NCBI GenBank assembly: GCA_964630685.1
Contig: CAZVVW010000002.1
Span: 25,559 to 89,558 of the forward strand
Direction: 5' to 3'
Length of the DNA stretch: 64,000 nt
DNA from: an uncultured Methanosarcinales archaeon
GTDB lineage: Archaea; Nanobdellota; Nanobdellia; Woesearchaeales; BS150m-G63
The stretch's first letter is position 1. Each line of letters opens with the position of its first letter. A program made the translations under genes and the position numbers. The notes beneath the pieces are model-generated. The model worked only from the letters and a program-made list of their open reading frames with translations. It was not told where the DNA came from and did not search any database. Positions 248-19,417 of this stretch are shown piece after piece.

Positions 248-252
248 TTTAA

Positions 253-280
253 GTTTATTATTATTATTATTATTATTATT
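253..280. repeat. (ATT)9 trinucleotide microsatellite between convergent gene ends
   Basis: Direct reading: tattattattattattattattatt in the 38-nt spacer between two convergent CDS ends. Confidence 0.9.
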
Positions 281-285
281 AAATA

Positions 286-1005: not shown

Positions 1006-1163
1006 TTTTTTAATTTAACCCTTTTTAGTAGAATTCCTTCTTTAGTTACTGAATATATAGCGAATCCTGTTTTTTTGTTTATACCTAACTCTAGTCTAAT
1101 GTTCTTGGGGATCACAATTTGACCCCTCTTATCGCATTGCACTAATGTTGGGTACCTAGCCAT
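1002..1163 (-). CDS. Small AbrB/SpoVT/MazE-type swapped-hairpin DNA-binding protein (53 aa). Not in the ORF track because it is under 60 aa
   Basis: Hand translation of the minus strand gives MARYPTLVQCDKRGQIVIPKNIRLELGINKKTGFAIYSVTKEGILLKRVKLKK. The looped-hinge-helix motif (C/V)D.RGQ.VIPK.IR..L.I is present. The stop TGA overlaps the ATG of trmI. The protein is a paralogue of the 17508..17795 ORF. Confidence 0.6.
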   Translation of the reverse strand: MARYPTLVQCDKRGQIVIPKNIRLELGINKKTGFAIYSVTKEGILLKRVKLKK

Positions 1164-1204
1164 TTTTTATTTTTGTTTGATTTTTTGCGTTTTTTATTGT
1201 TTTT

Positions 1205-1285
1205 TTCTTTTCTGATTTTCAGAATTTTAATCTGAAAGTCAGTTTTGTTTTCTGAAAATCAGGATTATTTTCTGATTTACTGATT
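1205..1285. promoter_or_regulatory. Array of TTCTGA-N3-TCAGAA type palindromes (candidate operator sites) upstream of the small AbrB-trmI pair
   Basis: ttctgattttcagaa, atctgaaagtcag, ttctgaaaatcagga and ttctgatttactga within 80 nt. The same palindrome family recurs at 17819..17942. Confidence 0.5.
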
Positions 1286-1287
1286 CA

Positions 1288-4200
1288 TTATATTACTGAA
1301 TCTATCACCTCTTTTCCCCACCCTACACTCTGTAAGAGTTGTTTAACCTCGTCAGCTGTTTTTCCTTGTGAAAGCTTGTAGTTGATATATGCTTTCAGTT
1401 GTTTAGTGTCTTGATGGGGTTTGTGAACATTGAATAATAGTAAGTCTGTTATGCCCTCTGACCAACCTTGTTCTAAGAGTGATTGCCGTATTTCTTCTAA
1501 GTTGTAACCTTCAGCATAAGAAGAATTGATGTAGTTTTCTACTGTGCTTAGAGTGTCTTTTAATTCTTTTGAACCGTCTAATGCAACATCTAGAACTTCT
1601 TCTGGCCAACCTTTGATGATTAGGGTTTGTTTTATATGATTTTTATTAAAGCCGTTTGCTAATCTTGTGCTGACGTATTTCTTTAAGTCTTTGAATTTGT
1701 CTTCTTCAGAAGGTTGCTCAACTGGTTTTAATTTTGGTTTAGTTTCGGCTGGTTTGATTTCTTGTTTTGATTCTTTGATTGGTTTTTGTTCAGTTATTGG
1801 TGCTGGTCCCTCTACTGGTATTAGTGTTGGTTTAATTTCAGCAGGTTTAATTTCAGGTCTTTTTGGAGGTAATAATTTACCTCTTAATACAAATCCAATT
1901 ATTGCCACTAAAACGACGATTATTGCGATTAAGTAAGGTATTAGATTAAGTGGGATTATACCAAATAATGGTTGTTCTACTTTTGGACATTTTGAACAAG
2001 GTCCACCACAATCTACCCCTTCTTCCCCTTGATTTTGAATATAATCAGAACATGTTGTGCATTTTGAACAAGGTCCACCACAATCTACCCCTTCTTCCCC
2101 TTGATTTTGAATATTGTCAGAACATGTTGCTCTAACAGTACATGCTGAACAAGGTCCACCACAATCTACCCCTTCTTCCCCTTGGTTTTTGATATTATCT
2201 GAACATGTTGCTGTTGAGCAAGCAGTGTAACAAGGTCCACCACAATCTACCCCTGCTTCGTTTTGGTTTTTTATACCATCATAACAGGTTGGTCCTGGAC
2301 ATGCTGCGCAAACACCACCACAATCAATTCCCATTTCATCTTGATTTTTAATTCCGTCAGTACAGGTTTCTATTGTTTCCATCACTGTGCTTCCGCTTAG
2401 TCCATTTCCACCCCCGCCACCACTTGGTTGTGTTGTTCCACTACTAATCGTTATAGTAATTGTTTCTGATTGTGTTACTGTTTGTTCATATAAGTCTGTT
2501 ATTGTGAGAGTTACTGTATAGTTTCCTGATGAGCTGTAAGTATTAGAATCAGTGAAAGATTCTGATGGATTGCTTGAATTAGTCCCTTCTGAAGTTGTTC
2601 CTTCTCCCCAATTTATTGTCCAAGTGATATTATCTGGGAAAGAATAATTTAAGTTGGAATCATTATATCTGAAAGATAAAATGTAGGTGTTATTTTGACT
2701 TTCACTTTCAGTTAAACTAAAGTAAGTAATTATTGGAGGATAATTAGTTATATTTGCTAAAGGTGTTGTTCCGTTGTTTGTTGTGTTCCAGAGTTCTTCA
2801 TCATCTGAGTTATAAACAGCACCACTATTAAGGAAATCATTAGTTACATTTGCATATCTTAAGATTAGATTACTAATTGTTGATAGATCAACTGAGCTAT
2901 AATATAAATCAGAATTATCTATTTCTGAGTTTGTTACATTGGAATTATTTATGTTTGAATCTGTTACATTTGAATCTATAATTCTTGAACTTCCAGTTAC
3001 ATTTGAATTAGTAACATTTGATGGATCAATAAATGCGCCATCAACATATGTATCTGTTAAGGTTACATGAATTATATCTGAATTAAGTACTGTTGTTCTT
3101 ATTAATGTTGAATCATTTATTGTCGAGTTGAAAACTGTGCTGTCGTTTATGATTATGCTTTCATCTATTGTTGAAAGATTTATGAAGGATTCATTTATGG
3201 TTGTTAGGTTGGTATCTTCTTTGTAGATAGTCGAATCATAAATTTCTGCTAAGTATATTGTTGTTAAATCTGTTCCATCACTGCCATAAGAATCATTGTA
3301 ATCTGTTTCATCTATTGTGGTGTTATATATTCTGTTTAGATATACATTCAAAGCTATGTTGTTGCTTGAATTCCAATATTCTCCATCTGTAACATTGAAA
3401 GATATTTTTTCTTCACCATTCCAACCTGTTGGTTGAGTAAATGTTACAATACTTCCATTTATTGATGCTTTTATTTTATAGTTTGCTGTTAAGTAGATTT
3501 CATAATAAGTTAATTCATCATCTTCTATATCATGGAAGTAATTACTTAAGTCTAAAGTGTGTGAGTTATCCATCCACCAGCTTTGGTTTTCAATTGTTTC
3601 ATTGCCAAAAACTTTTCTTGGAGCGTCATTTACTGGCGTTACATATAAGTTCAGTAGATTGCTTGCTATTTTAGTGAAAGAATCATTTACAAAGAATCTT
3701 ATTCTTTGATATCCAAACCAATCTGTGAATGGAGAGAATGTTGTTGTGACATTATTTGAATCACTTTCATTTATTGTGGTGTTTATCTCTCCATCTGTTG
3801 TGTAAGTTCCGTTTAAGTATATTGTACTATTGTTGTTGTAATCATTCAATAAATCAGTATCGCTTCTTGCATAATCATAGATTGCTAATTCATCTATGTA
3901 TGCATTAGCTTGTTCTGTTTGAGCACCATTTGAACCAATGTAGATTGTTAAATCATTGAAAGTTGTGTTGTCTATATCTGCTAATTCTTCTGAAGTTGTT
4001 CTGTTATCTGTTGTTATTTCATTATTAATTGTTAATGAGATTGTGTCTTCATCCCATCTAGCAGCCACAAAAGTCCATTCTTGATTGTTTAAGTTTGTAA
4101 TGTTTATTTCTGCTTTATCTTCCCTTTCCCTGATTCCAAATACGAATTTGTTGTCTTTTCTTCCTAACCAGAATAAGTCATCTACAGCATCAATTCCTTC

Positions 4201-7200
4201 TTCTGTTTCATTTGATGTGAACCCAAGGACATCATTTGCACTTTCATCGCCTATAAAGATTGTTGCAGATGAACCATCAGTAGTTGTGGTTAAGTTGAAT
4301 GTTGTGTTATCTGCTGTTGCCAGTCCAGGTATTTCTGTGTTTATGGTTTCTACAACTTTATCTACTGTTAAATTTCCTGCACTGAATGAGATGTTGTAAG
4401 AATCTCCGCTAATGGTTATTTCTAATAAAGTGTTATCTGTTGTTGCATCAGCGCCAGTATAAATTTGATTTGTGAATCCCAATAATTCGTTTGCTGTTCC
4501 ATTTAATATTTGGATGAATTTGGTAGAGCCAGTTTCTATTGTTTCTAATTTAATTGAATTATTGGTTGATGTGGATACATTAACTATTTCATTATCTAGA
4601 TTCATATCTAATAATGTTTTTACATCCTCAGCTGTTAGATTCCTATAATCTGTTTTTTCTGTTACTGTAAATGTTCCATTTACTTCTGGATGGAGGGTGA
4701 AAGAGTAATTATAAACTCCTGCTGTTGGGAATAGATGGGTGAAAGATTCTCCATAACTTAAGTCTTCTGTGGATAGATTTTCTGGTCCTGTAAAGCTTAT
4801 ATTATATGTAGCATCATCTAGATTTGTGAAAGTAGTTATGGTTCCTGCTTCTATGGTTGAAGGAAGATTTGTAAGGGCAAGATTTTGAATGAGTACTATC
4901 CGTATTAATGGGTTTTCACTTAGGTTTATTTCTGAGTATTCTCCACTTATATTTACTTTGAACAAATTATTTTCTGGAGTTACACTAAATGGTTCTTGTG
5001 CTGTTCCTGTTATTTCTGAGGGTGTTGCATTTGCTGTTATTGTAAAAATATAAGGGGATTCTCCTGAAGTGAGTACTGCAGGGGTTGCGTCTTCTATCGC
5101 TTCATCTAATCTGATGTCAAAGAATACTGCATCTTCATTTAGTGTTTCTGAGCCATTCCATGTTGGTTTTATGAACATCTCAATTGTTCCTTCTTCTTTG
5201 TTGAAGTTATTTCTAGTTACATTGTACTGAGAGGTTATTGGATAAGTTAATTTTCCAGGTAATCTATGTTCAGCAAGGAATGTGCTTGCATATTCTTTTT
5301 GTTCGAATTGCACCTTATCAATTTTGACCCATGTAGAATTACTGTCGGAATCTATAACGATTTGTGCATAAGCAGATTCTTGTGGGGATGTTAGGGTAAG
5401 AATTCTTCTGCTTGTGCTTTCGTTTATATCAGGCGTTGAAGTTATTGCTATAATACCGCTACAGTTCTGACTGCTTTCACAGTCAAGAGTTGAGCCAAGG
5501 TAAGAAATTGTTTTATTTGTTGTTTCATCAGTTGGGTACAATTCATTGAACCAGTTTATATGCAAGCGACCATTCCCTTGAGTAGAATTAGTAGCCATAT
5601 ATTGGCTTAATGTGTAATTTGTGTTTTCTGTCACTGTTATAAGTTGAGAATAATAATTATGTTCGTTAACTGTTACATATTCTGGGGGGGCATTGTGAGT
5701 GTATACAGGGTAACTGTGTCTTACCCAATCTTGGGGGGTTGTTACGTGTTCTGCATCTTCTGTGCTTTCATTGAAATCTCCATTTAATAGCAAGTTTTCT
5801 ATTTCTGATTGGATTAGGATGCTGTTATTGTTGATTCCGTTTTCTTGATTTATGTTTTCATATGATCCATTATTGAAATCAATTATTTCTGTTAGATTGT
5901 TTAATGAATCATAAAGCAATAATCCTTTTGGATACATAGTGTAAGTGTGAGTTAGATTATCATCTGCATCTGAGAAATAATCAGATAGTGTTAGATTTGT
6001 GTAATCAGTATCTTCTGGCCAGGATATGTCTGCTATGGTGCTATTGAATACTGGTGTTTCTGATGCTACTGTGAAGCTGAACCAGTATGTTTCGTTTGTT
6101 GAACTGTTTGATGTATCTCGCATATTTCCAGCTAGATCGTAAGATATTGATTTCCAATAGATAGTTTCTGTTTTGTTGGTTTCATTTTCTGGAATTGTTC
6201 CAAAGAAAGTGTCATCTAAGAATTCAAGTGTTTCTGAGGATAAGTTCATTTCTTGATGTACATCTGAATTCGAGGTGTTATATGTCCAGATTATGGTTGT
6301 TCTATCTTTGTCTATATTGTTTTCATTTGCATCCCAGATGAACATATTGTTTAACCAATCTATGCTCAAGGTTACATTATCATCATTGTAAACCGTTGAA
6401 GAGTTGGAAGAGGTTGTGATTTTTTGATTAGCATATTCTGGTGCTGTTTTATCTACAACAAACCAAGTTTCTAGTAGCACTGTATTGTTTAAAGTATCTG
6501 TTACATTGAAAACTACATCATATCTTCCATCTGTCCAATCTGGAGTGTTTAATGGAATTGAGTGGTTCCACCAGAATGTTTCAGAAGTGTTTTCTGTTGA
6601 ATTTGTTTTTATTATTGTTCCGGTTTTGTAAATGTTATAACTTAAATTTACAGAATAATTTAATGGGCTTCCAAATGTTGTGTTTGTGCTGTTTACAAAT
6701 GAGTCCATAATTAAATTACTATTGTTGTTTAACCATTGTGCTCTGAATTCCCATTCATCTGGATCTACAACTATGTATGGTGCTAATAAGTCAAGTGCAA
6801 AGTTTCTTGTTGAATTTCCTGAGTTTCCCAAAGAATCATTAGCTGTGATTACTATACTGTAATTTCCACTTGTGAATCCTGTAGGGATCCAAGAAGCATA
6901 ATATTGATTGTTTAAAGATATTAGGAATCCACTTGCAATTGTTTCATTGCTTGAGTTTAATATTTCATAAGTAGGATAATCTACCACTTGATTGAGTGTG
7001 TCTGTTATGTTTGCCCAGAATTCAACTAATATCCCAACTGATTGATCTTCTGTTGGGGAAGTTATATCTATTGTTGGAGATGTTTGGTCTACTTTAAAGG
7101 TTAGATTTATTGATTCTGTGCAGTTGTTGGTGAAACTGCTATTATCACATGATTTTATGTACCAAGTGTAGTTGTTATCTGAATAATCTGTTAAGTTGAT

Positions 7201-10200
7201 TGTGATATTTGAATCTGATGTTTCATTGCTTGATTCTAAAATCTCTGAGGAGTTGTAGATATATAAAGTGTAATTTATTCCATCTTCATCTGCATCTGTT
7301 GAGTCAGTCCAATCAAAGTCTATTGAATCTGTGTGCCATGTATTATTTATTGGAGCTATTTGTGTAGCTGTTGTTGGGATGGAATTGTTTATGTATACTG
7401 TTGAATTGAAATTTGAGTGGTTACTTTGTATAAATCCTGATGAAAGTCCAGTTGTATCTGTAATATTTACTTCACAAATGATATTATCTCCTGCAGAACC
7501 GTTTACAGATAAGTCTAAGTAATCTGTTGTTTGTCCAGTTATTTCTGTTCCATCTATGTACCATTTGTATTGTGTTAGTGAATCATCTACTGTTCCATTT
7601 CCATCTAAATCTGAGCTAATATAATTACAGAATAAGACATCATTTGTTAGTGCATAAGCTGGATTTGTTAGGTTTCTTTCATTAGCTGATGAAGTGTATA
7701 TGGCAATATCTATTGTTAGGTTGTCAACTACAGGTTCATCTGGCCAGTTGACTGTGAAATTGATTTCTGTATTTTCATCTCTACTCTGTTCGTTAGGTAT
7801 CTCTCTATCATCTTGACAGATGATGTAATAAGTGTGATTTCCTTGTGTTAAAGGTTCATCATCTTCATCTGTGATGTTACATGTTAAATTTATTCCTATT
7901 ATTTCAGTGGTTGCATTACAATATTTATCCCCTTTAGTTGAGTCTCTGTCTGCATAATCTTGGTCGTATAAAGAATAATAACAGGTTGAGTTTTCATCAG
8001 CTGTTATATTGATTAAAGTTATATCATCTTCATTAGTGTCTAACCAGCCATCTGATGAATCAGTGTCATTTGCCACTGAATTTATTTCTATTGTTGGAGG
8101 TGTTTGATCATAATAAGTTGTACCAAAGCTTGAGATTGGTGTACTCATTTTACCTATAGTATTAACTGCTGCTATAGTGAAATAATATGATGCTTGGTGG
8201 GTTAATTCATTTGCTTCAAATTCTAATGAATGGGTTAATGTATTTCCTGCGTTGAGCCATTGAGCTTGAGTGTCGTTCCATCCTGATTCATTGTATTCTG
8301 CTGTTCCTGCTGCGATTACATAATAGGAAATATCATATTTGTCATCTGAACTTCCTGTCCAACTTATTGGAATTGTTGGAGAGAAAGAATACAATGGGGC
8401 TGTAACATTTACAGCTGTGGGACCTGTCCCCACATCATAAGGTGGAAAATATTTCATTGCTTGAGTGGTTTTAACATCACTCCAAAGACTCCAATTATAG
8501 ATTTGATATCTTACATTTGCTACATAAATTGTGTGAGGTGTTAGGGTTAGGTTTTCATCTTCATTAGTGTAAAGACTTAGGTTAGTCCATGAACTGGATA
8601 TATTGGAATAACTGATGTAGTCTTCATCAGTGCCGAAACTAGTTAAGTTTCTCCAACCTGTTATTGAGTTCCATCCAGTGTTTGGATAAACTGCTGTACC
8701 TATTGTATATTGTAATGTTCCGTTTGAAGATATGTTTTGGGGTATACTTACATTGAAAGTTAAATTAGTGTTATTGAATTCTGGAGTTGTTCTTACTACA
8801 GTGAATTCTTCTGATGGTGCTGGTGAACTGTTTATCCAATAGTTTGATTTGGTTGTGCTGAAAGTATTCTCTGCACTATCATTAATATTGAATGTTAGAT
8901 TATATGTACCACTTGTTAGATTGAGCACCACTTGACAATCATAATTTGTTGATGATGTAGGTGTACAACTGATATTATCTCCCAGATTGCTCCATTCTGT
9001 TGTGTTGTATGAAGTGTCTGAGGTTACGTGTGTTTTGTTTTGTGTTCCGGTTATGTTTAACAGTAAGGTTGGTAAGTTTATTCCATAATTATCAGTTAAG
9101 TTGAAAGAGATTGTTGGAGTTGTTGATGTTTCATAATTAGGAATATCATTTATGCCTATTGCTGGGTTTTCATTATCACTAAAGGTTTCTTCTGCTGAAG
9201 TCCAATCACCTGTTAAGTTATACCCCCCTTCTATTGTTTTTATTGCTCTTGCTTTTATTGTATTGTCATCAGCATGTAAATTTAAAGTAAAATTAAACCA
9301 TCCTTGTGGTTCTGATGAATTGTAAGCATACACAATAGTTCCTGTGGGTACTGTTTGATTTAGGACTGGTGAGATGTTTATTCTGTATGATTCATCAGGT
9401 ATAATTTCTTGGTGTTCTGTTATTTGATATCTTAGGAAATCTTCTTTATCATGGTTTGCGAATTCTATGTAATTAGTTGTATTGAAATGAGTGTGGTTTG
9501 CATTATTGATTACTACAAAAGAGCTGTTTGTTTCAAATGTATCTATAACAGCTGAAGTGCCTTTGAGTGTTGAGGTTGATAATGTTGTTGTGCTATTATC
9601 TTTTGGATTTGCATATCCTTGCCAGGCATAAGCTTGGATAGTTATGTTGTTTACATTATCTTCTGGTAAATAACCTGTTATTTGTGCATTGTTGTTGTTT
9701 AGTGCATCCAGTGGCCAGAGTGTAGGGGTTGTTGGAGCAGGAATTACTGTTGTGTTTGATGCGTTTTTGAAATCAGTGTCTGTTAATTCCCATTGATCCC
9801 CTACTAATACTCTACATCTGATTACTTCTCCCCCTGTAAATGCCATTGTTAGATTTCTTGAAGTTTCACTTAATTGAGTCCAGTTGCTGTTTAGGTATTC
9901 ATACCATTCGAAGAAAGAATATATGTCGCTCTGTGCGTTAGTTATTTCGGAATCATTTCTATCTGTTGTGAATGTGCTTTCGTGATATGTGAAATTACAA
10001 TGAAGAGTTTCTTCATCTATTTGTATTGTTAATGGGGTGGTTGCGTTTGGTTTGTGATTTACTGCGAAAGAATCGTTATCATAATTTGAAACTTGGCCAT
10101 CACTGTCTACTATCTGTATCGAGTAGTTTGAAGTAGATAAATCTGTTTCAGTTGTGGTGTATGTTAGTGTTATTGGATTTGTGGTTTGAGCATATGCTTG

Positions 10201-13200
10201 AATGTATGCATTTATACATCCACCATTTTCATATCTTCCTTGTTCATCACAGATATAAACTGTTACATTTTCTCCAAAAGGTTGGTCTGCGTCTGTCCAA
10301 GAGATGCTGAAAGTTACTTCTTCACCCACATTTGTGGGATTTGTAGAATTAGAATCTACCATTACTTCAGTTATATTTGGTGTTGTGCCACTTACTTCAT
10401 AATCATAAATATATCTGGGTTCTGAGAACACTTCTTCTCCATAGTTTGTGTCATCATAAGGAGTTAGTCCACATTTCCAGTAATCTCCTGCTAAAGTTTC
10501 TTCATGAGTTAATATTGAACCTGTTGTTACTGCCCATTCAAAATAACCAGAACCTTGGTCAACATACCACCTGTAGGTGATACTTGTGTTATTAAACATT
10601 TCATTATCACTATCTAAATCAGTTAAATTTGTGTAACTACAATTTAAGGTTTCATTATCTAAAGGATAAATGTCTGCAGGTGTGGAGTTATAAACTGTTA
10701 AGTTAGCACTATCTAAAGTTGGAAGATGATTGATGTAAATATTGTTGTTTTGTGCTAAGGAGTTATAATTATTGCTTCTTTCTGTTGAGTCATAGATGTA
10801 CACATAGTAAGATTGGTTTGTGATGTTATTGTTTAGATTTTCACTATCATAAGTGCAAGTGTATGGTGAAGTGCTTGTAGAGGATAATGTACAGAAAGCA
10901 GTATCAAGACATCCTTCTCTGTTGTGATTGGTTGAGTTACAGATAAATAATTCTACTGTTTCTCCGATATTTGAGTCATACCAGTTTACTGTGAAATTGA
11001 TGTTTGCTTCATATACTAATGGAGCTGTTGAATTAGTGTTTAATGCTACACTTGTTATTTCTGGGGTGATTTCTCCTATAGGTATTTCAGAGGAGATGTT
11101 TTCTGTGCTGTTTACATAACCATCAGATACAATAACTCCACATTTCCATGATTCTCCTTCTGCTGTGTGGTCTGAAGAAAGATTTTGAACTGAAGTGTCT
11201 GCGTCTATATTTTGCCAAGTTCCATTGTTGTATTTATACCAGAAGAAATATTGATCCTCTTCTCCTGCGTAATTGGATGCATTAGTGTTATCACCAGAAA
11301 GATTGAAATCTGCATCTGAGAATGTGTAATTACAATTCAAAGTTTCATTTGTGTTAAAGAAAGTTCCTCCAGAGGAATTTATTATTGAAGTGTTTTGTGC
11401 TGTCGGAACATGGTTTACAGAGAAAGTGCTTACATTTGCAGATGAACATAGGTTTGAATCATCACATATCATTACTGTGAAGTTTACTGTGCCATTATCT
11501 GTTGATTGTACTGTGTATGAAGCGTAAATTGGATTATCTGAAGTGAAATCCACTTCAGTGAAACCTTCATATTCACAACCAGCGTTTTCTATGATGCTGT
11601 CATTTTTACATACATAAGCTTCAACCAATTCTCCAAATGGTTGATCTGCATCTGTCCAATTTATTGCAAATGTCACAACATCTCCGACATTTGTTGGCTC
11701 TGTTGCTGTTGAGCTAGAATCTAGTGAAAGTATTTTTGGAGTTTCATTTACACCATACTGTGTAACTGTAACATTATCTGAGTCTACAGGAACACTGCAA
11801 GTGTAGTTATCACATGTTGTTACTGTACATTTCCATCTTTGACCTAATGATGTTTCTCCACTTACCAGTGTTTCATTGTTGGGATAATCATTTAGAAGTT
11901 GAAATCCTGAACCTTGGTCATAATACCAAGAGTAGTTGTAAGTGAGTGTTGCGTTTTCTGCATCATTTGCTGTGGCGCTACATTCAAGATTATTTGAAGG
12001 CTGAGGTGATGTTGGTGTTAAGTTTACTTCGGTAACTTCTGGTTTTCTGTTTAGATGAATTGTTCCTGTTTCAGTGTCTGAGTTTTCATCTTCATCATAA
12101 ATCCTCATAGTGTAATTGAATTGGGTGGTGTTTGCTGATGCTGTTGTCAATGTTGAGCTGTTGAATTCACAAGTTATAGGATCTGTTGTTGTAAAAGTTG
12201 TTGTGCAGTATTCTGTATTGGAACAGCCAGCAGAAGTTATACTAGAATCATTACAGATGAATAAAGTTACTTGAGCATCATTCCATTGTTCTGGGTCTGA
12301 CCAGTCAACTGTGAAGGTGATGTTTTCATTGAAAGTAATTGGTTCGCTTGAATTTGATCCTTGATATGTTGTTGATTGGATTGTTGGTGCATGACTTTCT
12401 ACAATTCCTTCAGCAGAAACTGCTGTGCTGTTTGCATAACCATCGTTTACTATTACTTCACATTTCCATTCATCTCCGTAAGAAGTGTAATCTGTGCTTA
12501 TTGTTTGTGTACTGAAGTCTTGTTTAACCCATACTCCCTGTACTTTTTTATACCAAGAGAAGTATTGGTCTGATTCAGTGTGGTAATCTGAAGAGTTGTT
12601 TCCTCCACCTGAAACATTATGATCTCCATCATCAAAAGTGTAATTACAACTTAAATCATCTGTTTCATTGATATAAGCACCCCCATTTATACTGACAGTT
12701 TCTGCTGTAGGGATATGATTTACAGAGAAATTGTAAGGTCCTTCAGCAGATGAACAATCATAATTTTCATTACAAACCATTGTGTAATAATTTAGGACGT
12801 GGTTAGTGTTATCTCCATAATCTTCATCTTCTGCTGTGTAGGTTATTGTTAATGGATTGTCTGTTGTCCATCCACTGTAACTGAATTGTTTTGAGCCAGC
12901 AGCACATCCTGTTTGAAGAATGTTTGAGCTGTTACAAATATAAGCCATTGCTGAAGTTGTGTTTGGACTTGCCCAAGATATTATGAAAGTGATATCTTCT
13001 CCAACGTTTGTTGGGTATGTTGCATTAGAATTATCTGTTGCATTTACTACGCTAGTTTCAGTTTCTGTTCCGGTTGATTCTGAAATGGTTATGTCGTCAG
13101 ATGTTTTTGATGTTCCATCTGAATATCCATCATTTGGTATGATTTCACATTTCCATTGATCGCCAAGTTCTGTTGCGCTGAAGCTTAATAAATTTGAAGT

Positions 13201-16200
13201 GTTGGATGTTGGACCATACTGCCAGTAAACTTGCCAATCACCTGAACGTTTTAACCACCATTTGTAAGTGTAAGTCATTGTGTCGTTGTCTGAATCTGTG
13301 GAATCATTAACTGCACATTTTATTGTTGAATCATTAGGAACATAATTTCCTGAGACATATGCTGAATTATTATAATAAGTGATATTTAGACTATTAACAA
13401 TAGGAATATGGTTTACAAAGAAACTATATCCAGATTGGTTTCTACAATCATAATCTGCACTACAGAATAAAAGATTATAATTGATTGGGCCATGACTGTT
13501 TGTTAAGTTGAATACAGGAGTATTTGTTCCTGGTGTAACTACTAATTCATCAACTTTAAAAATTGCTTGAGCTGGATTGTTATAAGTTACTGTTCTATTG
13601 AACTCATACCCCCAACAACCAGAGTTTCTTATGTGGGTATCATTATCACAGACATATAATTTTACATAATCATAAGGACCATCCCAAGTTACATTTACAA
13701 TTATGTCATCGCCTATATTTATGGGTGTAAGAGTTCCCGATTCATTATTAGAATTATCAGATACAGCCGTTATTTCTGGTCCACCACCGGTTTCTGGAAT
13801 GTCTTCACCTAAAGCAGCAGTTACATGGATTTCTGAAGAATTCTTTGATTCCCCATATTCCCATTCATCTATGGGTGTGATTTGACATTTCCATTCATCT
13901 CCTGGCATTGTGTTTCCATGAACTAAGATGTCGTTGTAATCATTATCACACCAAAGGAAATCATCACAAGAACTGAATTCTGTATCGCCGAATGGCTTTA
14001 CAAACCATTCATAAGTGTAATTGATTATTTCATTATAAACAGAATTACCTGTTGTAGCATCCCAGATTATGTCTTCTCCAGAATCATAATTATCATTTTC
14101 ATTTGTATCATGGAAATAACATCCAGTTAAAGAAGTGCCATTTGTTCCGCTACTTACAGATGAGAATTGGAGGATAGTTTTCCAATTTTCACTATTATTA
14201 TATATTAGGGTGTCAATATTATAATCATAATTTGAATCATCATTTACATCAATGTATGCTAGATTTGTATCATTACTGCAAGCCAAGATTGCAGTGCCAT
14301 TTTTTAGGTTTGAATCTTTTTGATTCCTAATATCTGCAAAAGGTGTTTCCCAACCATCTGCATCTATCATAATATCTGAAGTTGTGGTGTTTGTTAAATC
14401 TTGATCGCTTCCAGTTCCTTGAATACATTGGAGATTCCAATCATCATTTATATCTGAAGTGTATGTTAAACCTTCATTATAACTAAGATGATTTGTCCCT
14501 ATATTAACCCAGTTTAGTTTGGCTGCGTGGTTGACTGTGAAGTTGCCGTCTCTCCAGATTGAACATGCTCCACCAACATCACAGATTCTCATGTGGTATA
14601 TTACTTCACTATCATCTACATCTTCTGCTGTATAAGTACATGATTGTTGTTTGTCTGGGCTGTAGTCTGTTTCACAATAGGTTTTAGCCCCTGGACAGCT
14701 ACCAGTATCTGAACCAGAAGCTTTATAATTTATCCTTATATTTGCTTGATCATAATGAGGTCCTCCATCTGATGAGGTGTTATCATAAATAATTGAAGCA
14801 GAACCGGTTTCATGTGCAGCTACTTTTACTGAAGAATCATTATAAGGAATTTCTCCTGAAAGTAAACAGTTATCTAAGTATCCTGAATCTGCTACTTTTC
14901 CTGTTATTCCAAAAATTGTTCTAAATGCTTTACCTACCCAATTTATTAAATCCATTAGCCAGTTTCCTGTTGGTTGTATTCTTGCTGTAGCATAACCTAC
15001 TCCACCCATTTCCATGTCTTCTGAAAAAGCAGGGTCATTTGGATCTGCTATACAGAATTTTAGTGATGTGTATTTATCTGGCAATGGTTGGGCATTATAT
15101 TGCATAGTGAATGTTGTCCATTCTCCAACAGTAAAGGTGTTCCAGTCACTTCTTGCTATTCTCATTTCTGTTGAGCCATAATAATCTGGTACATGAGAAG
15201 TTGGAGAGTCAGTCATTGAAGTGTTGTCTGCTTCGTAAGCTATTATTGAAAATATGAAAGGGGTGTTATATCCTGAGGTGCTGTTTGTTATTCCATCAAT
15301 TATTGCTTGCCTTATTTTGATATCTACTGTGTCTATCATTAATCCTGTTTCATTTGTGTAAACATGAGCAAAATTTCCATCACCTCCAAAGGTGATGTTT
15401 TGGGCACAATAAGTGTCGTTATCACAGCTATAATCCTCTATACCTCCTGTTTTGTCACACACCACCATCATTGCTGATTCACCAACATCTGTGTCTAACC
15501 AATGTGAATCAAAGGTTACATCTTCTCCAACGTTTGTTGGATTGGTAGAGTTAGAATCATCTTCATAATCTATTAATTGAGGAATTGAGTTTCCCCCTAT
15601 TATTGTAACAGAAGAATTTTCATATTCATAATAAGTTGATCCATTAAGCCAAGTCCAATTTCTACTTGTGGAATTAAACCAAACTCTTTCATTATAACAA
15701 AGAGGATTACTCACCCAACTCTCATCATAATCACATACACTTATTGCACATTTTATTTTATCGTTTTGATCAAAATAATTATCTAATGTTGGATTAGTTT
15801 CATCTGGAACTTCAACAAAACTATTTATCCCTTCATTGTTAATGTACCATTTGTATGCTGTTGATTTATCATTAACTGAACCATATTCACTTTCAGTATC
15901 TAGATCAATATCATTAAATGTGAAATTACAAGTTAAGGTGTCATTTCCTAATGGATCTGTTGGAGTGACTTCTGCATTTGAAGCATAAGGTGCTGTGTTG
16001 TTTATTGCATACCATCGCGTGTCGCTGTTTTCTCCACTAGATATTTCAGGTCCATCTTCTTTCCCATCATTAGGAACCATTGCACAAGTGATTTTATCTC
16101 CTTTGAAAGTATGAGAATAACTTAACATAGCAGTACATTCCCAAAGATCTGGATTATCTACTATCCCTTCTTCACAATAGATATCATTTAAATTAGGATA

Positions 16201-17511
16201 CTGTGGAATAGTGTCGTTTGGACCTATTGGGCCCAGATTAATACATGTAGCATCCATATTTTCTTCTACATAATTTGTTCCGCCAGAGAATGTTGCAACT
16301 GTAAAAGTATATTTGGCAGTTATTTCATCATTATTTCCATCACACACAAAACCAGTACAATAGATATCATGAGCTGTTTGTGCGTGTCCTTTTAAGGGAT
16401 CGAGATAAATAGTATCATTTGCAAAATAGGGTTCTGCATTAAATGCTGCTGTTACTATTGCAGAATCATCTGATTCTTGGGTGCCGTCCCATGCAGTTAT
16501 GTAGAAATAGAATAAGGTTGTGTTATAATAGCTAGAGACATTCCAAGGTAGAGATGAACTTCCTAGGATGCCAGTAGTAGTAACGTTTCTGAATGATATA
16601 TAGGCTGGTGATGTGTAGTTCCAATGGGTGTTTTCAGAGACAATATTAGTATAATTCATTCCTGATTCTGCTGTTGCAGCGTAGATATAATAGCCTAAAA
16701 CATCATCTGTATCTCCTCCTGCTACACTAGTATCATCACCTACATTAGGTTCATCAGCAGATCTTGTCCAATTAATATCAATTCCTAATTCTCCTTGGTC
16801 ATCTAGATGGTCTGCTGCGTTAACATTTGTTGGAGGATCTGGTGCGTTATTATCTATAGTGGTTGCATTTATACAACTAGATTCGTTTTCATTACCTGAA
16901 GCGTCAACTGAAGTGACTTTAAAACCATAAGTGGTATTTACTTCCAGATTTTCCCAAGTAAAAGAAGAGATTCCTGCAGATACTGAATCATTATAGTTGT
17001 TATTTGTACATGATCCATTAGGGTGCAATTTTATCAAGTAATGGTCTATATAATTTATTCCTTGTCCATCATCTGAAGGTAAAGTCCAGTGTAAATCAAT
17101 TGCAGTTCCTTGATCATTTTCTGTATCTTCTGCATATAATCCTATTACTTCTTGAGGGGTTGTGTTATCTGAAGCAGTTGCATTCCCACTATCCGTATCT
17201 ATTAAACCATTTGTACTGTTATAAGAACTTACAGTGAAGGTATGTTCATTTGTATCTCCTGCAGTATACATATAATCCAGAGTCATACCATTTAGTACTT
17301 GTATACCGTCAATGTATAATTGATAACTTACTGCATTTGTATCATTTGTCCATTCTGCTTTTATTTGCAATTCGTTGTTTTCTTGGTTTTCTAATGTCAG
17401 ATCAGTTGCATTTACAGAATTAGTTAATAATATTAAAAATAAAGCCACAGCTATTAAGAAAACATAACTTTTAAGATTTACTTTCTCCTCTTTTTTTAGT
17501 GCTTTGTTCAT
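1288..17511 (-). CDS. Giant (5,407 aa) secreted, membrane-anchored surface protein; probably an adhesin or S-layer-like glycoprotein
   Basis: Uninterrupted 16.2 kb ORF. N-terminal signal peptide (KSYVFLIAVALFLILLTNSVNA). Extremely N/T/S/D-rich with a very high density of N-x-S/T sequons. About seven tandem ~220-aa repeats (PTNVGE.VTF..W ... WKC....DGY.NST). Five Cys-rich DCGGPC repeats. A single TM helix (IIPLNLIPYLIAIIVVLVAIIGFVL) followed by a ~200-aa charged cytoplasmic tail. Confidence 0.85.
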   Translation of the reverse strand: MNKALKKEEKVNLKSYVFLIAVALFLILLTNSVNATDLTLENQENNELQIKAEWTNDTNAVSYQLYIDGIQVLNGMTLDYMYTAGDTNEHTFTVSSYNSTNGLIDTDSGNATASDNTTPQEVIGLYAEDTENDQGTAIDLHWTLPSDDGQGINYIDHYLIKLHPNGSCTNNNYNDSVSAGISSFTWENLEVNTTYGFKVTSVDASGNENESSCINATTIDNNAPDPPTNVNAADHLDDQGELGIDINWTRSADEPNVGDDTSVAGGDTDDVLGYYIYAATAESGMNYTNIVSENTHWNYTSPAYISFRNVTTTGILGSSSLPWNVSSYYNTTLFYFYITAWDGTQESDDSAIVTAAFNAEPYFANDTIYLDPLKGHAQTAHDIYCTGFVCDGNNDEITAKYTFTVATFSGGTNYVEENMDATCINLGPIGPNDTIPQYPNLNDIYCEEGIVDNPDLWECTAMLSYSHTFKGDKITCAMVPNDGKEDGPEISSGENSDTRWYAINNTAPYASNAEVTPTDPLGNDTLTCNFTFNDIDLDTESEYGSVNDKSTAYKWYINNEGINSFVEVPDETNPTLDNYFDQNDKIKCAISVCDYDESWVSNPLCYNERVWFNSTSRNWTWLNGSTYYEYENSSVTIIGGNSIPQLIDYEDDSNSTNPTNVGEDVTFDSHWLDTDVGESAMMVVCDKTGGIEDYSCDNDTYCAQNITFGGDGNFAHVYTNETGLMIDTVDIKIRQAIIDGITNSTSGYNTPFIFSIIAYEADNTSMTDSPTSHVPDYYGSTEMRIARSDWNTFTVGEWTTFTMQYNAQPLPDKYTSLKFCIADPNDPAFSEDMEMGGVGYATARIQPTGNWLMDLINWVGKAFRTIFGITGKVADSGYLDNCLLSGEIPYNDSSVKVAAHETGSASIIYDNTSSDGGPHYDQANIRINYKASGSDTGSCPGAKTYCETDYSPDKQQSCTYTAEDVDDSEVIYHMRICDVGGACSIWRDGNFTVNHAAKLNWVNIGTNHLSYNEGLTYTSDINDDWNLQCIQGTGSDQDLTNTTTSDIMIDADGWETPFADIRNQKDSNLKNGTAILACSNDTNLAYIDVNDDSNYDYNIDTLIYNNSENWKTILQFSSVSSGTNGTSLTGCYFHDTNENDNYDSGEDIIWDATTGNSVYNEIINYTYEWFVKPFGDTEFSSCDDFLWCDNDYNDILVHGNTMPGDEWKCQITPIDEWEYGESKNSSEIHVTAALGEDIPETGGGPEITAVSDNSNNESGTLTPINIGDDIIVNVTWDGPYDYVKLYVCDNDTHIRNSGCWGYEFNRTVTYNNPAQAIFKVDELVVTPGTNTPVFNLTNSHGPINYNLLFCSADYDCRNQSGYSFFVNHIPIVNSLNITYYNNSAYVSGNYVPNDSTIKCAVNDSTDSDNDTMTYTYKWWLKRSGDWQVYWQYGPTSNTSNLLSFSATELGDQWKCEIIPNDGYSDGTSKTSDDITISESTGTETETSVVNATDNSNATYPTNVGEDITFIISWASPNTTSAMAYICNSSNILQTGCAAGSKQFSYSGWTTDNPLTITYTAEDEDYGDNTNHVLNYYTMVCNENYDCSSAEGPYNFSVNHIPTAETVSINGGAYINETDDLSCNYTFDDGDHNVSGGGNNSSDYHTESDQYFSWYKKVQGVWVKQDFSTQTISTDYTSYGDEWKCEVIVNDGYANSTAVSAEGIVESHAPTIQSTTYQGSNSSEPITFNENITFTVDWSDPEQWNDAQVTLFICNDSSITSAGCSNTEYCTTTFTTTDPITCEFNSSTLTTASANTTQFNYTMRIYDEDENSDTETGTIHLNRKPEVTEVNLTPTSPQPSNNLECSATANDAENATLTYNYSWYYDQGSGFQLLNDYPNNETLVSGETSLGQRWKCTVTTCDNYTCSVPVDSDNVTVTQYGVNETPKILSLDSSSTATEPTNVGDVVTFAINWTDADQPFGELVEAYVCKNDSIIENAGCEYEGFTEVDFTSDNPIYASYTVQSTDNGTVNFTVMICDDSNLCSSANVSTFSVNHVPTAQNTSIINSSGGTFFNTNETLNCNYTFSDADFNLSGDNTNASNYAGEEDQYFFWYKYNNGTWQNIDADTSVQNLSSDHTAEGESWKCGVIVSDGYVNSTENISSEIPIGEITPEITSVALNTNSTAPLVYEANINFTVNWYDSNIGETVELFICNSTNHNREGCLDTAFCTLSSTSTSPYTCTYDSENLNNNITNQSYYVYIYDSTERSNNYNSLAQNNNIYINHLPTLDSANLTVYNSTPADIYPLDNETLNCSYTNLTDLDSDNEMFNNTSITYRWYVDQGSGYFEWAVTTGSILTHEETLAGDYWKCGLTPYDDTNYGEEVFSEPRYIYDYEVSGTTPNITEVMVDSNSTNPTNVGEEVTFSISWTDADQPFGENVTVYICDEQGRYENGGCINAYIQAYAQTTNPITLTYTTTETDLSTSNYSIQIVDSDGQVSNYDNDSFAVNHKPNATTPLTIQIDEETLHCNFTYHESTFTTDRNDSEITNAQSDIYSFFEWYEYLNSNWTQLSETSRNLTMAFTGGEVIRCRVLVGDQWELTDTDFKNASNTTVIPAPTTPTLWPLDALNNNNAQITGYLPEDNVNNITIQAYAWQGYANPKDNSTTTLSTSTLKGTSAVIDTFETNSSFVVINNANHTHFNTTNYIEFANHDKEDFLRYQITEHQEIIPDESYRINISPVLNQTVPTGTIVYAYNSSEPQGWFNFTLNLHADDNTIKARAIKTIEGGYNLTGDWTSAEETFSDNENPAIGINDIPNYETSTTPTISFNLTDNYGINLPTLLLNITGTQNKTHVTSDTSYNTTEWSNLGDNISCTPTSSTNYDCQVVLNLTSGTYNLTFNINDSAENTFSTTKSNYWINSSPAPSEEFTVVRTTPEFNNTNLTFNVSIPQNISSNGTLQYTIGTAVYPNTGWNSITGWRNLTSFGTDEDYISYSNISSSWTNLSLYTNEDENLTLTPHTIYVANVRYQIYNWSLWSDVKTTQAMKYFPPYDVGTGPTAVNVTAPLYSFSPTIPISWTGSSDDKYDISYYVIAAGTAEYNESGWNDTQAQWLNAGNTLTHSLEFEANELTHQASYYFTIAAVNTIGKMSTPISSFGTTYYDQTPPTIEINSVANDTDSSDGWLDTNEDDITLINITADENSTCYYSLYDQDYADRDSTKGDKYCNATTEIIGINLTCNITDEDDEPLTQGNHTYYIICQDDREIPNEQSRDENTEINFTVNWPDEPVVDNLTIDIAIYTSSANERNLTNPAYALTNDVLFCNYISSDLDGNGTVDDSLTQYKWYIDGTEITGQTTDYLDLSVNGSAGDNIICEVNITDTTGLSSGFIQSNHSNFNSTVYINNSIPTTATQIAPINNTWHTDSIDFDWTDSTDADEDGINYTLYIYNSSEILESSNETSDSNITINLTDYSDNNYTWYIKSCDNSSFTNNCTESINLTFKVDQTSPTIDITSPTEDQSVGILVEFWANITDTLNQVVDYPTYEILNSSNETIASGFLISLNNQYYASWIPTGFTSGNYSIVITANDSLGNSGNSTRNFALDLLAPYIVVDPDEWEFRAQWLNNNSNLIMDSFVNSTNTTFGSPLNYSVNLSYNIYKTGTIIKTNSTENTSETFWWNHSIPLNTPDWTDGRYDVVFNVTDTLNNTVLLETWFVVDKTAPEYANQKITTSSNSSTVYNDDNVTLSIDWLNNMFIWDANENNIDKDRTTIIWTYNTSNSDVHQEMNLSSETLEFLDDTFFGTIPENETNKTETIYWKSISYDLAGNMRDTSNSSTNETYWFSFTVASETPVFNSTIADISWPEDTDYTNLTLSDYFSDADDNLTHTYTMYPKGLLLYDSLNNLTEIIDFNNGSYENINQENGINNNSILIQSEIENLLLNGDFNESTEDAEHVTTPQDWVRHSYPVYTHNAPPEYVTVNEHNYYSQLITVTENTNYTLSQYMATNSTQGNGRLHINWFNELYPTDETTNKTISYLGSTLDCESSQNCSGIIAITSTPDINESTSRRILTLTSPQESAYAQIVIDSDSNSTWVKIDKVQFEQKEYASTFLAEHRLPGKLTYPITSQYNVTRNNFNKEEGTIEMFIKPTWNGSETLNEDAVFFDIRLDEAIEDATPAVLTSGESPYIFTITANATPSEITGTAQEPFSVTPENNLFKVNISGEYSEINLSENPLIRIVLIQNLALTNLPSTIEAGTITTFTNLDDATYNISFTGPENLSTEDLSYGESFTHLFPTAGVYNYSFTLHPEVNGTFTVTEKTDYRNLTAEDVKTLLDMNLDNEIVNVSTSTNNSIKLETIETGSTKFIQILNGTANELLGFTNQIYTGADATTDNTLLEITISGDSYNISFSAGNLTVDKVVETINTEIPGLATADNTTFNLTTTTDGSSATIFIGDESANDVLGFTSNETEEGIDAVDDLFWLGRKDNKFVFGIREREDKAEINITNLNNQEWTFVAARWDEDTISLTINNEITTDNRTTSEELADIDNTTFNDLTIYIGSNGAQTEQANAYIDELAIYDYARSDTDLLNDYNNNSTIYLNGTYTTDGEINTTINESDSNNVTTTFSPFTDWFGYQRIRFFVNDSFTKIASNLLNLYVTPVNDAPRKVFGNETIENQSWWMDNSHTLDLSNYFHDIEDDELTYYEIYLTANYKIKASINGSIVTFTQPTGWNGEEKISFNVTDGEYWNSSNNIALNVYLNRIYNTTIDETDYNDSYGSDGTDLTTIYLAEIYDSTIYKEDTNLTTINESFINLSTIDESIIINDSTVFNSTINDSTLIRTTVLNSDIIHVTLTDTYVDGAFIDPSNVTNSNVTGSSRIIDSNVTDSNINNSNVTNSEIDNSDLYYSSVDLSTISNLILRYANVTNDFLNSGAVYNSDDEELWNTTNNGTTPLANITNYPPIITYFSLTESESQNNTYILSFRYNDSNLNYSFPDNITWTINWGEGTTSEGTNSSNPSESFTDSNTYSSSGNYTVTLTITDLYEQTVTQSETITITISSGTTQPSGGGGGNGLSGSTVMETIETCTDGIKNQDEMGIDCGGVCAACPGPTCYDGIKNQNEAGVDCGGPCYTACSTATCSDNIKNQGEEGVDCGGPCSACTVRATCSDNIQNQGEEGVDCGGPCSKCTTCSDYIQNQGEEGVDCGGPCSKCPKVEQPLFGIIPLNLIPYLIAIIVVLVAIIGFVLRGKLLPPKRPEIKPAEIKPTLIPVEGPAPITEQKPIKESKQEIKPAETKPKLKPVEQPSEEDKFKDLKKYVSTRLANGFNKNHIKQTLIIKGWPEEVLDVALDGSKELKDTLSTVENYINSSYAEGYNLEEIRQSLLEQGWSEGITDLLLFNVHKPHQDTKQLKAYINYKLSQGKTADEVKQLLQSVGWGKEVIDSVI
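1987..2364 (-). repeat. Five tandem ~27-aa Cys-rich repeats (C.D.I.NQ.E.GVDCGGPC..C) within the giant protein, membrane-proximal
   Basis: The DNA-level direct repeats (aaggtccaccacaatctaccccttcttccccttg...) are visible. The protein repeats are CSDNIQNQGEEGVDCGGPCSKC and variants. Confidence 0.8.
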
Positions 17512-17795
17512 ATCTCTTCTAGTTTTCCAGTTTTTTCTTGTCGGTATTCTTTAAGGGTTTTCTTGAGATGTTCTTTTTTTATTCCTAGTTTGTCTGACTT
17601 GTTGTCTATTTCTATTATCATCGGTTCTTCTTCTAGAGCTGGCGCTGCTATTTTTTTTAGCAGGATGCCTTCTTCTAAGATAGAATGTAGCCAAAAACCA
17701 GTTCCTTCTTTTATGTTGAGTTCTGCTCTAATGTCTTTAGGAATTACTAGTTGTCCTCTGTCATCACACTGAATTATCTTTGGGTATTTTTTCAT
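17508..17795 (-). CDS. AbrB/SpoVT-family transcriptional regulator (95 aa from the ATG; the ORF track starts at TTG 17810), translationally coupled to the giant surface-protein gene
   Basis: MKKYPKIIQCDDRGQLVIPKDIRAELNIKEGTGFWL is the swapped-hairpin AbrB domain and is paralogous to the 1002..1163 ORF. The stop overlaps the giant gene start as ATGA. Confidence 0.65.
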   Translation of the reverse strand: MKKYPKIIQCDDRGQLVIPKDIRAELNIKEGTGFWLHSILEEGILLKKIAAPALEEEPMIIEIDNKSDKLGIKKEHLKKTLKEYRQEKTGKLEEI

Positions 17796-17798
17796 AGT

Positions 17799-17814
17799 CC
17801 TTTTGCGCAAAAGG
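17799..17814. promoter_or_regulatory. Perfect 16-nt palindrome CCTTTTGCGCAAAAGG immediately 5' of the AbrB ATG, followed by a T-run
   Basis: Direct reading. Forms a 7-bp GC-containing hairpin 4 nt upstream of the start codon. Confidence 0.5.
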
Positions 17815-17818
17815 TTTT

Positions 17819-17942
17819 TTTCTGATTTTCAGAATTTTAATCTGAAAATCATATATATTTTTCTGATATTCAGAATTTTATCTGAAATTCAGATTTCAAA
17901 TTCCCATTTTAGGAATTTTTTTCTGATATTCAGAATTAATCT
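17819..17942. promoter_or_regulatory. Array of at least five TTCTGA-N3-TCAGAA / ATCTGAAA-TCAGA palindromes (candidate AbrB operators) upstream of the AbrB-giant protein operon
   Basis: ttctgattttcagaa, atctgaaaatca, ttctgatattcagaa, atctgaaattcaga, ttctgatattcagaa. Same family as at 1205..1285. Confidence 0.55.

Positions 17943-18250: not shown

Positions 18251-19417
<1,167 letters not shown>

Follow-up and report, generated by a model that had tools for sequence, protein, structure and literature searches.

How ultrasmall DPANN archaea recognize and hold other cells is an open question, and most of them, including the Woesearchaeota, are uncultured. What, then, does a gene that fills a quarter of a 64-kb stretch of such a genome do? 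We analyzed 64,000 nucleotides of contig CAZVVW010000002.1 (hereafter, the window), in which one open reading frame (ORF) encodes a protein of 5,407 amino acids (aa) that we call the giant. The giant is probably a surface fiber of a marine Woesearchaeota that is exported by the Sec route, anchored in the membrane with type I topology, and heavily N-glycosylated; lectin-like binding, docking through its tail, and autoregulation by an AbrB-like protein are part of this reading. The coordinates of all features are collected in Table 1.

The giant ORF is a real and conserved gene

Is an ORF of this length real? A metagenome contig from the Joint Genome Institute (JGI), Ga0105000_1000228, contains the window, and the giant gene is also present in three other assemblies, which are 100% identical over its 3' 9 kb. 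The frameshifts or stops on resequencing that might have undone the original prediction did not appear in these assemblies. An ortholog from another assembly (P0274; 5,418 aa) could be aligned with the giant end to end at 82.7% identity, with indels of only 1 to 8 aa, an equal number of repeat units, 96 of 96 Cys residues kept, and the same signal-peptide-like layout at its N terminus. The single intact 5,407-aa ORF described in the original prediction is therefore borne out: it is open without stops, it recurs in independent assemblies, and it has a collinear full-length ortholog.

Farther collinear homologs of 5,068 to 6,404 aa, annotated in Candidatus Woesearchaeota metagenome-assembled genomes (MAGs), share 25 to 30% identity with the giant over the repeat array, the central region, the lectin region, and the tail. 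A scan of one genome per species returned six loci: one carried the title "uncultured Methanosarcinales archaeon," and the titles of the other five read Woesearchaeota, Nanoarchaeota, or unclassified archaeon. The relatives of the giant come from marine water-column and trench metagenomes. We rejected the possibility of an orphan ectodomain, as an exhaustive HMMER search combined with local BLAST on its matches revealed the family. A word-indexed search with a two-unit query found one distant bacterial match and missed the true orthologs, and the same type of search with the tail found 2 matches.

The only assembly-dependent feature of the giant is the number of membrane-proximal Cys repeats (described below), with 5, 4, or 3 copies that always differ by in-frame units. 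The corresponding products are 5,407, 5,383, and 5,356 aa long and differ by the clean loss of 1 or 2 of these repeats. The variable copy number, together with a 100-N gap in this region in a scaffold from one assembly, is what could be said for an assembly artifact or a decaying pseudogene. We give this explanation a negligible probability: independent assemblies and orthologs, the latter ranging from 83% to ~27% identity, all keep an open frame, every Cys residue is conserved, and the glycosylation sequons are under selection. We conclude from this shared open frame that the giant gene is real, conserved, and a member of a family. A difference in repeat copy number among relatives, for which the original prediction had proposed a comparison, was not found in the tandem units, which are equal in number in the two full-length orthologs; the Cys repeats alone vary.

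The giant is a predicted type I membrane N-glycoprotein

A Kyte-Doolittle scan revealed exactly two hydrophobic segments in the giant, one in the signal-peptide-like N terminus and the other close to the C terminus. Positive charges follow the second segment, and this layout agrees with the signal peptide, single transmembrane (TM) helix, and type I topology that had been predicted.

Are the N-x-S/T sequons of the giant more than a product of its composition? The sequons and the Cys residues are confined to the ectodomain, with one sequon in the tail. We counted 266 sequons in the ectodomain versus 123 ± 9.5 expected from 1,000 shuffles (z = 15; 2.2-fold); the reversed control motif S/T-x-N, with 134 occurrences, was not enriched, and the 24 other proteins of the window hold 38 sequons versus 51 expected. 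Comparison of the giant with P0274 revealed that 85% of the sequons are still sequons. The Asn of a sequon was kept in 87.7% of cases versus 76.7% for other Asn residues (Fisher P = 7e-4), and the Ser/Thr at position +2 was kept in 95.5% versus 81.6% for other Ser/Thr residues (P = 1e-9). Because both sequon Asn and sequon Ser/Thr are conserved above background, the motif itself is under purifying selection, beyond composition. With sequons both enriched and conserved, the giant is a predicted N-glycoprotein, and the sequon saturation noted earlier stands as an enrichment accompanied by selective conservation.

A type IV prepilin-peptidase-like gene (24362-25222, minus strand) and a cis-prenyltransferase gene (25308-26015, plus strand), whose product serves the synthesis of polyprenyl/dolichyl carriers, lie on the upstream side of the giant gene at a distance of 7 to 8 kb and may bear on surface structures and glycosylation.

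The ectodomain combines a variable tip with a conserved lectin-like core

The ectodomain (~5,100 aa) is acidic and consists mostly of Ig/FN3/PKD-like beta-sandwiches. Profile matches to fn3 and Big_3_3, together with the pair of Ig-like sandwiches in each tandem unit, bear out the modular beta-sandwich architecture of the original prediction. The first 200 aa are the fastest-evolving part of the protein, with 51% identity to the ortholog versus 83% overall. Self-comparison delimited a tandem array at aa ~1130 to 2600, with lone B-type domains outside it at aa ~380 to 640 and 3284 to 3352. Each unit joins an A half (motif NVGEDxTF..W..YxC..GC) to a B half (motif VNHxP..LxCNY.F.D.D..YxWY..GDxWKCxV..DG), and alternate units are the most alike (42% identity). 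About seven tandem repeats of ~220 aa had been claimed; six are regular units of ~225 aa, and the remaining one is an expanded unit at aa 645 to 1237. The central region that follows is collinear with the orthologs at 28% identity and includes a Big_3_3 domain (aa ~3435 to 3572; 38.2 bits versus a cutoff of 27) and sub-threshold fn3 matches. Searches of PDB sequences with the two halves of the protein gave chance-level matches only. We infer that the ectodomain forms a rod of ~45 sandwich-sized modules, which would be ~100 to 200 nm long if extended.

The membrane-proximal third contains a pair of lectin-like modules that is conserved across the family. The first, a stretch similar to carbohydrate-binding module (CBM) families 4 and 9, is the best-conserved part of the ectodomain; PF02018 (CBM_4_9) matches 2 of 8 aligned orthologous segments (best E = 1.6e-5), and a PDB profile search with this module returned nothing. 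The second is a LamG/ConA-like domain, and NCBI names for orthologs of the giant are likewise LamG-like. Its Laminin_G_3 match covers aa 4446 to 4553 (profile positions 47 to 149 of 151), and the N-terminal third of the domain precedes a 310-aa lineage-specific insert (aa 4136 to 4444; window positions 4180-5106, minus strand). The insert includes a weak, Cys-less cupredoxin-like stretch (aa ~4220 to 4284) and is missing from two homologs (P0127 and P0146). The giant ORF of another relative (L009, positions 89-15253) carries a different, beta-propeller-like insert at the same position, and the LamG domain is thus an insertion hot spot. Between the lectin-like pair and the Cys repeats, all matches are sub-threshold: Cadherin_5 (22.1 bits), PKD_4 (23.0 bits; aa 4960 to 5021), tand_rpt_95 (38.8 bits), and, for an N/S/T-rich stretch at aa ~4770 to 4900, designed pentapeptide solenoids in the PDB (E ~0.01).

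Could the lectin-like pair tether the cell to polysaccharide or marine particles, for nutrient capture or attachment to organic matter, instead of to a host cell? The CBM4/9-like and LamG modules themselves, the marine water-column and trench origin of the relatives, and a Cys repeat in common with secreted glycoside hydrolase family 10 (GH10) xylanases and CBM-bearing proteins of bacteria all speak for such a tether. We nevertheless regard it as quite unlikely. Pfam and NCBIfam scans found no catalytic glycoside hydrolase domain in the 5,407 aa, and a passive tether needs neither a cytoplasmic tail nor tight regulation.

A second explanation is that the giant is structural, forming a glycosylated protective canopy or spacer, or a substitute for a surface layer (S-layer), with no specific partner on another cell. 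The dense coat of conserved sequons, the acidic ectodomain, the C-terminal TM anchor as in some archaeal S-layer glycoproteins, and the conservation of the family across Woesearchaeota in synteny beside housekeeping genes are all consistent with an envelope role, and we give this explanation some weight while considering it unlikely. A protein of 600 kDa with ~45 tandem domains lies far above lattice-forming S-layer proteins, and it lacks a PGF-CTERM/archaeosortase-type end because a folded tail of 192 aa follows the TM helix. Conservation of the ectodomain is highest in its lectin-like modules, the fast divergence of the distal tip fits recognition better than packing, and having a repressor-type regulator of its own suggests that the giant is expressed conditionally and not constitutively.

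A putative four-Cys stalk and a RecX-like tail module are found in the giant and in many other proteins

The five Cys-rich DCGG repeats that had been predicted before the TM helix were found there, and at the DNA level they form an 81-nt tandem repeat. More than 2,000 proteins match this repeat, among them proteins of Woesearchaeota, Nanoarchaeota, and Myxococcota, GH10 xylanases, and CBM-bearing proteins; the repeat has no match in Pfam, NCBIfam, or PDB sequences. Among the best 120 matches, 66 proteins have an array that begins no later than residue 60, and in 54 the array lies at most 40 residues from a hydrophobic segment. The array fits a membrane-proximal, disulfide-stabilized stalk.

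The 192-aa tail consists of a 53-aa linker and three repeats of ~45 aa. The linker rich in Pro, Lys, and Glu and the three helical repeats of the original prediction were upheld, and its label "GW-type" proved misleading. A Listeria GW module, an SH3-like beta module of ~80 aa, was rejected: no GW family matched at E ≤ 0.5, the tail model is all-helical, and only the Gly-Trp dipeptide is shared. An AlphaFold2 model of the tail (33-sequence alignment; predicted local distance difference test score [pLDDT], 83.4) shows three repeats with nine helices in all. The repeat, with the consensus hddLekLkkYIkkaLkkGYskeeIkkaLlkaGWpeevIdkvl, occurs in 1 to 13 copies per protein. The tail of the giant scored 22.3 bits against RecX_HTH1, below the cutoff of 26, and 25.1 bits against the NCBIfam RecX model, below its cutoff of 146.

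An exhaustive HMMER search with aa 5269 to 5407 retrieved 240 cluster representatives. Among the listed matches of at least 1,000 aa (n = 53), a TM helix was present in 50, a median of 42 residues before the tail module; the module sat at the extreme C terminus in 52, DCGG repeats were also present in 16, and the upstream parts had a median sequon excess of 2.4-fold. The RecX-like repeats are thus the C-terminal anchor of many sequon-rich proteins of 1,000 to 6,400 aa. In two proteins with mirror topology (P0048 and P0065), the module is N-terminal, a TM helix comes after it, and the Cys repeats beyond that helix are extracellular; the tail module is therefore cytoplasmic. Its conservation and its place after the TM helix in these long matches agree with the genuine intracellular module that had been proposed.

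The tail-type repeat also makes up multi-repeat proteins that have no TM helix or other hydrophobic segment. Four of them (P0141, P0145, P0161, and P0168) are ~480 aa long, lack a hydrophobic segment, and carry several such repeats, flanked by a conserved domain on the N-terminal side and by a Cys-containing domain resembling a zinc ribbon on the C-terminal side. These soluble proteins are possible cytoplasmic partners of the tail of the giant. In the window itself, the gene for ribosomal protein L11 (31731-32498, plus strand; 255 aa) encodes L11 domains that end at aa ~137 and a highly charged extension of 118 aa, which has a weak partial match to the hidden Markov model (HMM) of the tail repeat (E = 3e-4).

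A bolder extension of these observations, which we offer as speculation with little probability behind it, is that the RecX-like tail and the soluble proteins with 3 to 13 repeats together constitute a new archaeal membrane-to-cytoplasm scaffold, a DPANN-specific cell-cell contact organelle under the switch of the AbrB-like protein. Such a scaffold would couple giant fibers to the cell interior (outside-in), functionally like integrin-talin or cadherin-catenin, and would be turned on via the AbrB-like repressor at TCTGAwwwTCAGA operators, for example, upon contact with a partner cell.

The giant gene lies in a conserved cassette with AbrB-like genes and palindromes

Is expression of the giant regulated? 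Two small AbrB-like genes flank the giant gene. The 95-aa protein encoded directly upstream scored 25.0 bits against PF04014 (cutoff, 24.7) and bears a 45-aa helical C-terminal extension; 7 of 7 aligned homologs also match this family. The AbrB-like genes and the clustered palindromes lie just outside the stretch covered by the original prediction, which did not mention them. Searching both strands of the 64 kb with at most 1 mismatch, we found 12 palindrome matches versus 1.67 expected, a number that no shuffle reached, and all of them lie upstream of the two small AbrB-like genes only. TATA-like elements near the palindromes are not evidence in a background of 30% GC.

The motif and its spacing recur in five related loci (L007 to L011). 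In every locus checked, the outermost palindromes are 101 to 103 bp apart, which is about ten helical turns. Such spacing could mean that the AbrB-like protein binds cooperatively or loops the DNA. In L010, the palindromes, an AbrB-like gene, a 2,893-aa gene, and the methyltransferase gene follow in this order, with 4-nt overlaps throughout. In L009, the methyltransferase gene comes directly after an AbrB-like gene and its palindromes, which there lie behind the giant gene, and in L007 it comes after an intervening 366-aa ORF. In L045 to L049, homologs of the 53-aa paralog precede an ORF of 235 to 239 aa whose N terminus is the same as that of the methyltransferase.

A metagenome scan extended these observations to 33 loci with a homolog of 94 to 97 aa, 25 of which have a downstream ORF with a 4-nt (ATGA-type) overlap. 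A signal-like hydrophobic segment opens all downstream ORFs of at least 60 aa (28 of 28). Sequons are in excess in most of them (about 2-fold for the longer ORFs), and where the contig allows, these ORFs reach 1,986, 2,318, or >3,333 aa. A 64-aa AbrB-like form likewise precedes a 2,277-aa ORF (L042). A palindrome lies at most 300 nt upstream in 23 of 31 loci and, in most long loci, nowhere else. Together, these data reveal a conserved cassette of palindromes, an AbrB-like gene, a giant gene (4-nt overlap), an AbrB-like gene and/or palindromes, and a TrmI-like methyltransferase gene. We infer from this arrangement that the giant locus is a putative autoregulated operon. A toxin-antitoxin pair (MazEF/VapBC-like) was rejected, as the downstream genes are the giant and the methyltransferase, with no adjacent toxin.

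The methyltransferase gene lies downstream even in distant relatives, which may reflect synteny alone or a functional link. Just past the cassette of L009 lies a gene for a 446-aa secreted Lamin-Tail-Domain protein (16565-17905, plus strand).

A probable surface fiber that may mediate adhesion

How might these parts work together? In the fiber reading that we favor, the protein would project ~100 to 200 nm from the cell as a glycan-shielded rod, and its lectin-like modules and variable tip would bind to another cell or to a particle by way of glycans or surface structures there. The helical tail would dock the fiber to a cytoplasmic partner; candidates for this partner are the soluble proteins with several copies of the tail-type repeat. 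The AbrB-like protein would bind the TCTGAwwwTCAGA palindromes (TCTGAAAATCAGA) and autoregulate the operon; with such autoregulation, this very costly protein would be made under certain conditions only. The function that we consider most likely is attachment to another cell, given the lectin-like core, the rapid divergence of the tip, and the precedent that cultivated DPANN archaea set with their giant surface proteins (PMC10266531).

Several points weigh against this reading. The signal peptide and TM calls come from hydropathy and the (-3,-1) rule only. The window contains no AglB/STT3 oligosaccharyltransferase gene, which bears on glycosylation capacity. The CBM-like module of the giant falls below every Pfam threshold, and several further domain calls in the ectodomain are sub-threshold. 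Foldseek returned no global PDB match for the three-repeat tail, so that the likeness to RecX holds at the level of the single repeat, with 47 residues aligned. In L007 to L009, the AbrB-like gene overlaps the stop of the giant gene, and two palindromes with a spacing of 103 bp come after the AbrB-like gene. Because these loci carry both elements behind the giant gene, the simple model of an upstream operator is not universal. Finally, partner binding, host attachment, and conditional expression are plausible suggestions, and the episymbiotic life that the original prediction associates with such proteins would be a possibility for this Woesearchaeota clade.

Giant DPANN surface proteins are already known as a kind; in the searchable literature, we found no description of this giant family, its RecX-like anchor, the DCGG repeat, or the AbrB-like cassette. 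The locus offers several handles on the question of how these archaea hold other cells: a conserved family of giant glycoprotein-like fibers in which a lectin-like core is defined and the tip varies; a portable anchor, made up of the four-Cys stalk, the TM helix, and the RecX-like tail, by which such proteins can be recognized in metagenomes; and a candidate regulator-operator pair that could report fiber expression. Both the four-Cys repeat with its DCGG motif and the helical repeat of the tail occur widely and have no entry in Pfam or NCBIfam; their description would improve the annotation of thousands of proteins.

Host and features of the window

We assign the host of the giant gene to the marine Woesearchaeota (DPANN). 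The window is archaeal in character (30% GC), with genes for Topo VI A/B, RIO1, aEF-2, and a split RNA polymerase and with intron-bearing tRNAs; these housekeeping genes and the homologs in Candidatus Woesearchaeota and Nanoarchaeota MAGs agree with the DPANN origin that had been predicted. Rfam identified three tRNAs (42332-42460 and 42898-43019, minus strand; 18144-18204, plus strand), and ARAGORN identified none. Two of them carry introns, because they are 122 to 129 nt long, and the third, a 61-nt match, is apparently part of a longer intron-split gene that starts near 18095. The window encodes both a bacterial-type DNA gyrase B (45622-47529, plus strand) and Topo VI A/B (18251-21119, minus strand).

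Table 1. Features of the giant locus, in window coordinates unless a related locus is named
Feature	Position	Strand	Remarks
Giant ORF	1288..17511	-	5,407 aa, 601 kDa, pI 4.05; ATG start, no internal stop
Signal-peptide-like N terminus, aa 1-35	17407..17511	-	Hydropathy; Lys-rich n-region, hydrophobic core ~15-35, VNA|T
Membrane-distal tip and FN3-like region, aa 36-380	16372..17406	-	fn3 at aa 132-212, 29.3 bits (cutoff 25)
Lone Ig-like domains of B type, aa ~381-644; first A-B unit (expanded), aa 645-1237	13801..16371	-	Self-BLAST, motif scan
Six regular tandem A-B units, ~225 aa each, aa 1238-2600	9712..13800	-	Two Ig-like beta-sandwiches per unit
Central non-repetitive beta-rich region, aa 2601-3859	5935..9711	-	FN3-like, Big_3_3, one B-type domain
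CBM_4_9-like module, aa ~3900-4075	5287..5814	-	Family conservation profile
LamG/ConA-like lectin domain, aa 4085-4560	3832..5259	-	Laminin_G_3 (PF13385), 33.1 bits (cutoff 27.6)
Cadherin/Big_9/tandem-95-like domain(s), beta-solenoid-like stretch, PKD domain	2449..3831	-	All matches sub-threshold
Five four-Cys repeats, 22-23 aa, CxDxIxNQxExGxDCGGxCxxC, aa 5050-5175	1987..2364	-	Membrane-proximal putative stalk
Single TM helix, aa 5182-5215	1867..1968	-	Hydropathy; positive charges C-terminal (RGKLLPPKRP)
Pro/Lys/Glu-rich linker, aa 5216-5268	1708..1866	-	23% Pro, 19% Lys, 15% Glu
Three RecX-type three-helix repeats, aa 5269-5407	1291..1707	-	Conserved cytoplasmic tail module
95-aa AbrB/SpoVT/MazE-fold protein	17508..17795	-	Stop overlaps ATG of giant (ATGA); directly upstream, same strand
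53-aa AbrB/SpoVT-like paralog	1002..1163	-	PF04014, 25.1 bits; stop overlaps methyltransferase start
GCD14/TrmI-like methyltransferase gene	286..1005	-	Downstream neighbor of giant; same neighbor in L007, L009, L010
Palindrome cluster TCTGAwwwTCAGA, four copies and one degenerate copy	17821..17934	.	Putative operator; outer copies 101 bp apart
Two palindrome copies (one exact, one mismatched)	1211..1263	.	Between stop of giant and 53-aa AbrB-like gene
Palindrome pairs in relatives	L007 14063/14166; L008 14058/14161; L009 15608/15711; L010 3184/3285; L011 30-131		
Methyltransferase gene in relatives	L007 15438-16160; L009 15747-16466; L010 12271-12984		

Comparison with known systems

The closest precedents are the "SPEARE" giants of Nanohaloarchaeota, SVXNc_0300 (9,409 aa) and BNXNv_0298 (8,880 aa), which combine a VirB4/TraG-like ATPase domain on the cytoplasmic side with a neighboring gene for a VirB4-like ATPase and are proposed to act with these ATPases in delivering effectors into the host (PMC10266531). 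Is the Woesearchaeota giant a secretion "straw" of this type? The overall plan is the same as that of the two SPEARE proteins (PMC10266531): a DPANN origin, a Sec-type signal, a long acidic ectodomain (pI ~4) with tandem Ig/FN3-like domains, a membrane anchor, a cytoplasm-facing end, and a proposed contact with another cell. However, we saw no sequence relationship. The Woesearchaeota giants have a four-Cys stalk, a CBM-LamG core, and a coupled AbrB-like gene, and the cytoplasmic part of the giant is only 192 aa long and made of RecX-like repeats. No ATPase or P-loop domain was found in the giant (Pfam and NCBIfam, E ≤ 0.5), and its neighbors are AbrB-like genes, a TrmI-like methyltransferase gene, and Topo VI genes, with no VirB4-like or other secretion ATPase adjacent. 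We therefore disfavor a SPEARE-like straw as very unlikely.

Bacterial giant adhesins (RTX/Bap/"tandem-95") resemble the giant in having many tandem beta-sandwiches, an acidic composition, and lectin-like modules near one end, and the giant has a sub-threshold tand_rpt_95 match. In contrast to these adhesins, the giant has no visible RTX or type 1 secretion system (T1SS) signal, LPXTG motif, or outer-membrane anchor; it combines Sec-type export with a C-terminal TM helix, a cytoplasmic tail, and N-glycosylation sequons. Archaeal S-layer glycoproteins share N-glycosylation (predicted for the giant), acidity, and a C-terminal anchor, whereas the giant is 5 to 10 times larger, lacks a PGF-CTERM/archaeosortase signal, and has a folded cytoplasmic tail. 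The identity of an S-layer subunit was rejected on the basis of the 192-aa folded tail after the TM helix and the mass of 601 kDa.

RecX, the bacterial RecA regulator (PDB 3c1d, 3e3v, 3dfg, and 3d5l; RecX_HTH1/2/3), likewise has three tandem three-helix repeats. It is a stand-alone cytoplasmic protein of ~150 aa, whereas in the giant the module forms the end of a membrane protein of 5,407 aa, and relatives have the repeat in 1 to 13 copies. Archaea use RadA rather than RecA. Autoregulators of the AbrB/SpoVT/MazE fold (PF04014) typically sit beside palindromic DNA, and both small proteins of the giant locus match the swapped-hairpin domain at the gathering threshold and adjoin palindromes. They differ in that they have no toxin partner and that the coupled downstream gene encodes a giant secreted protein.

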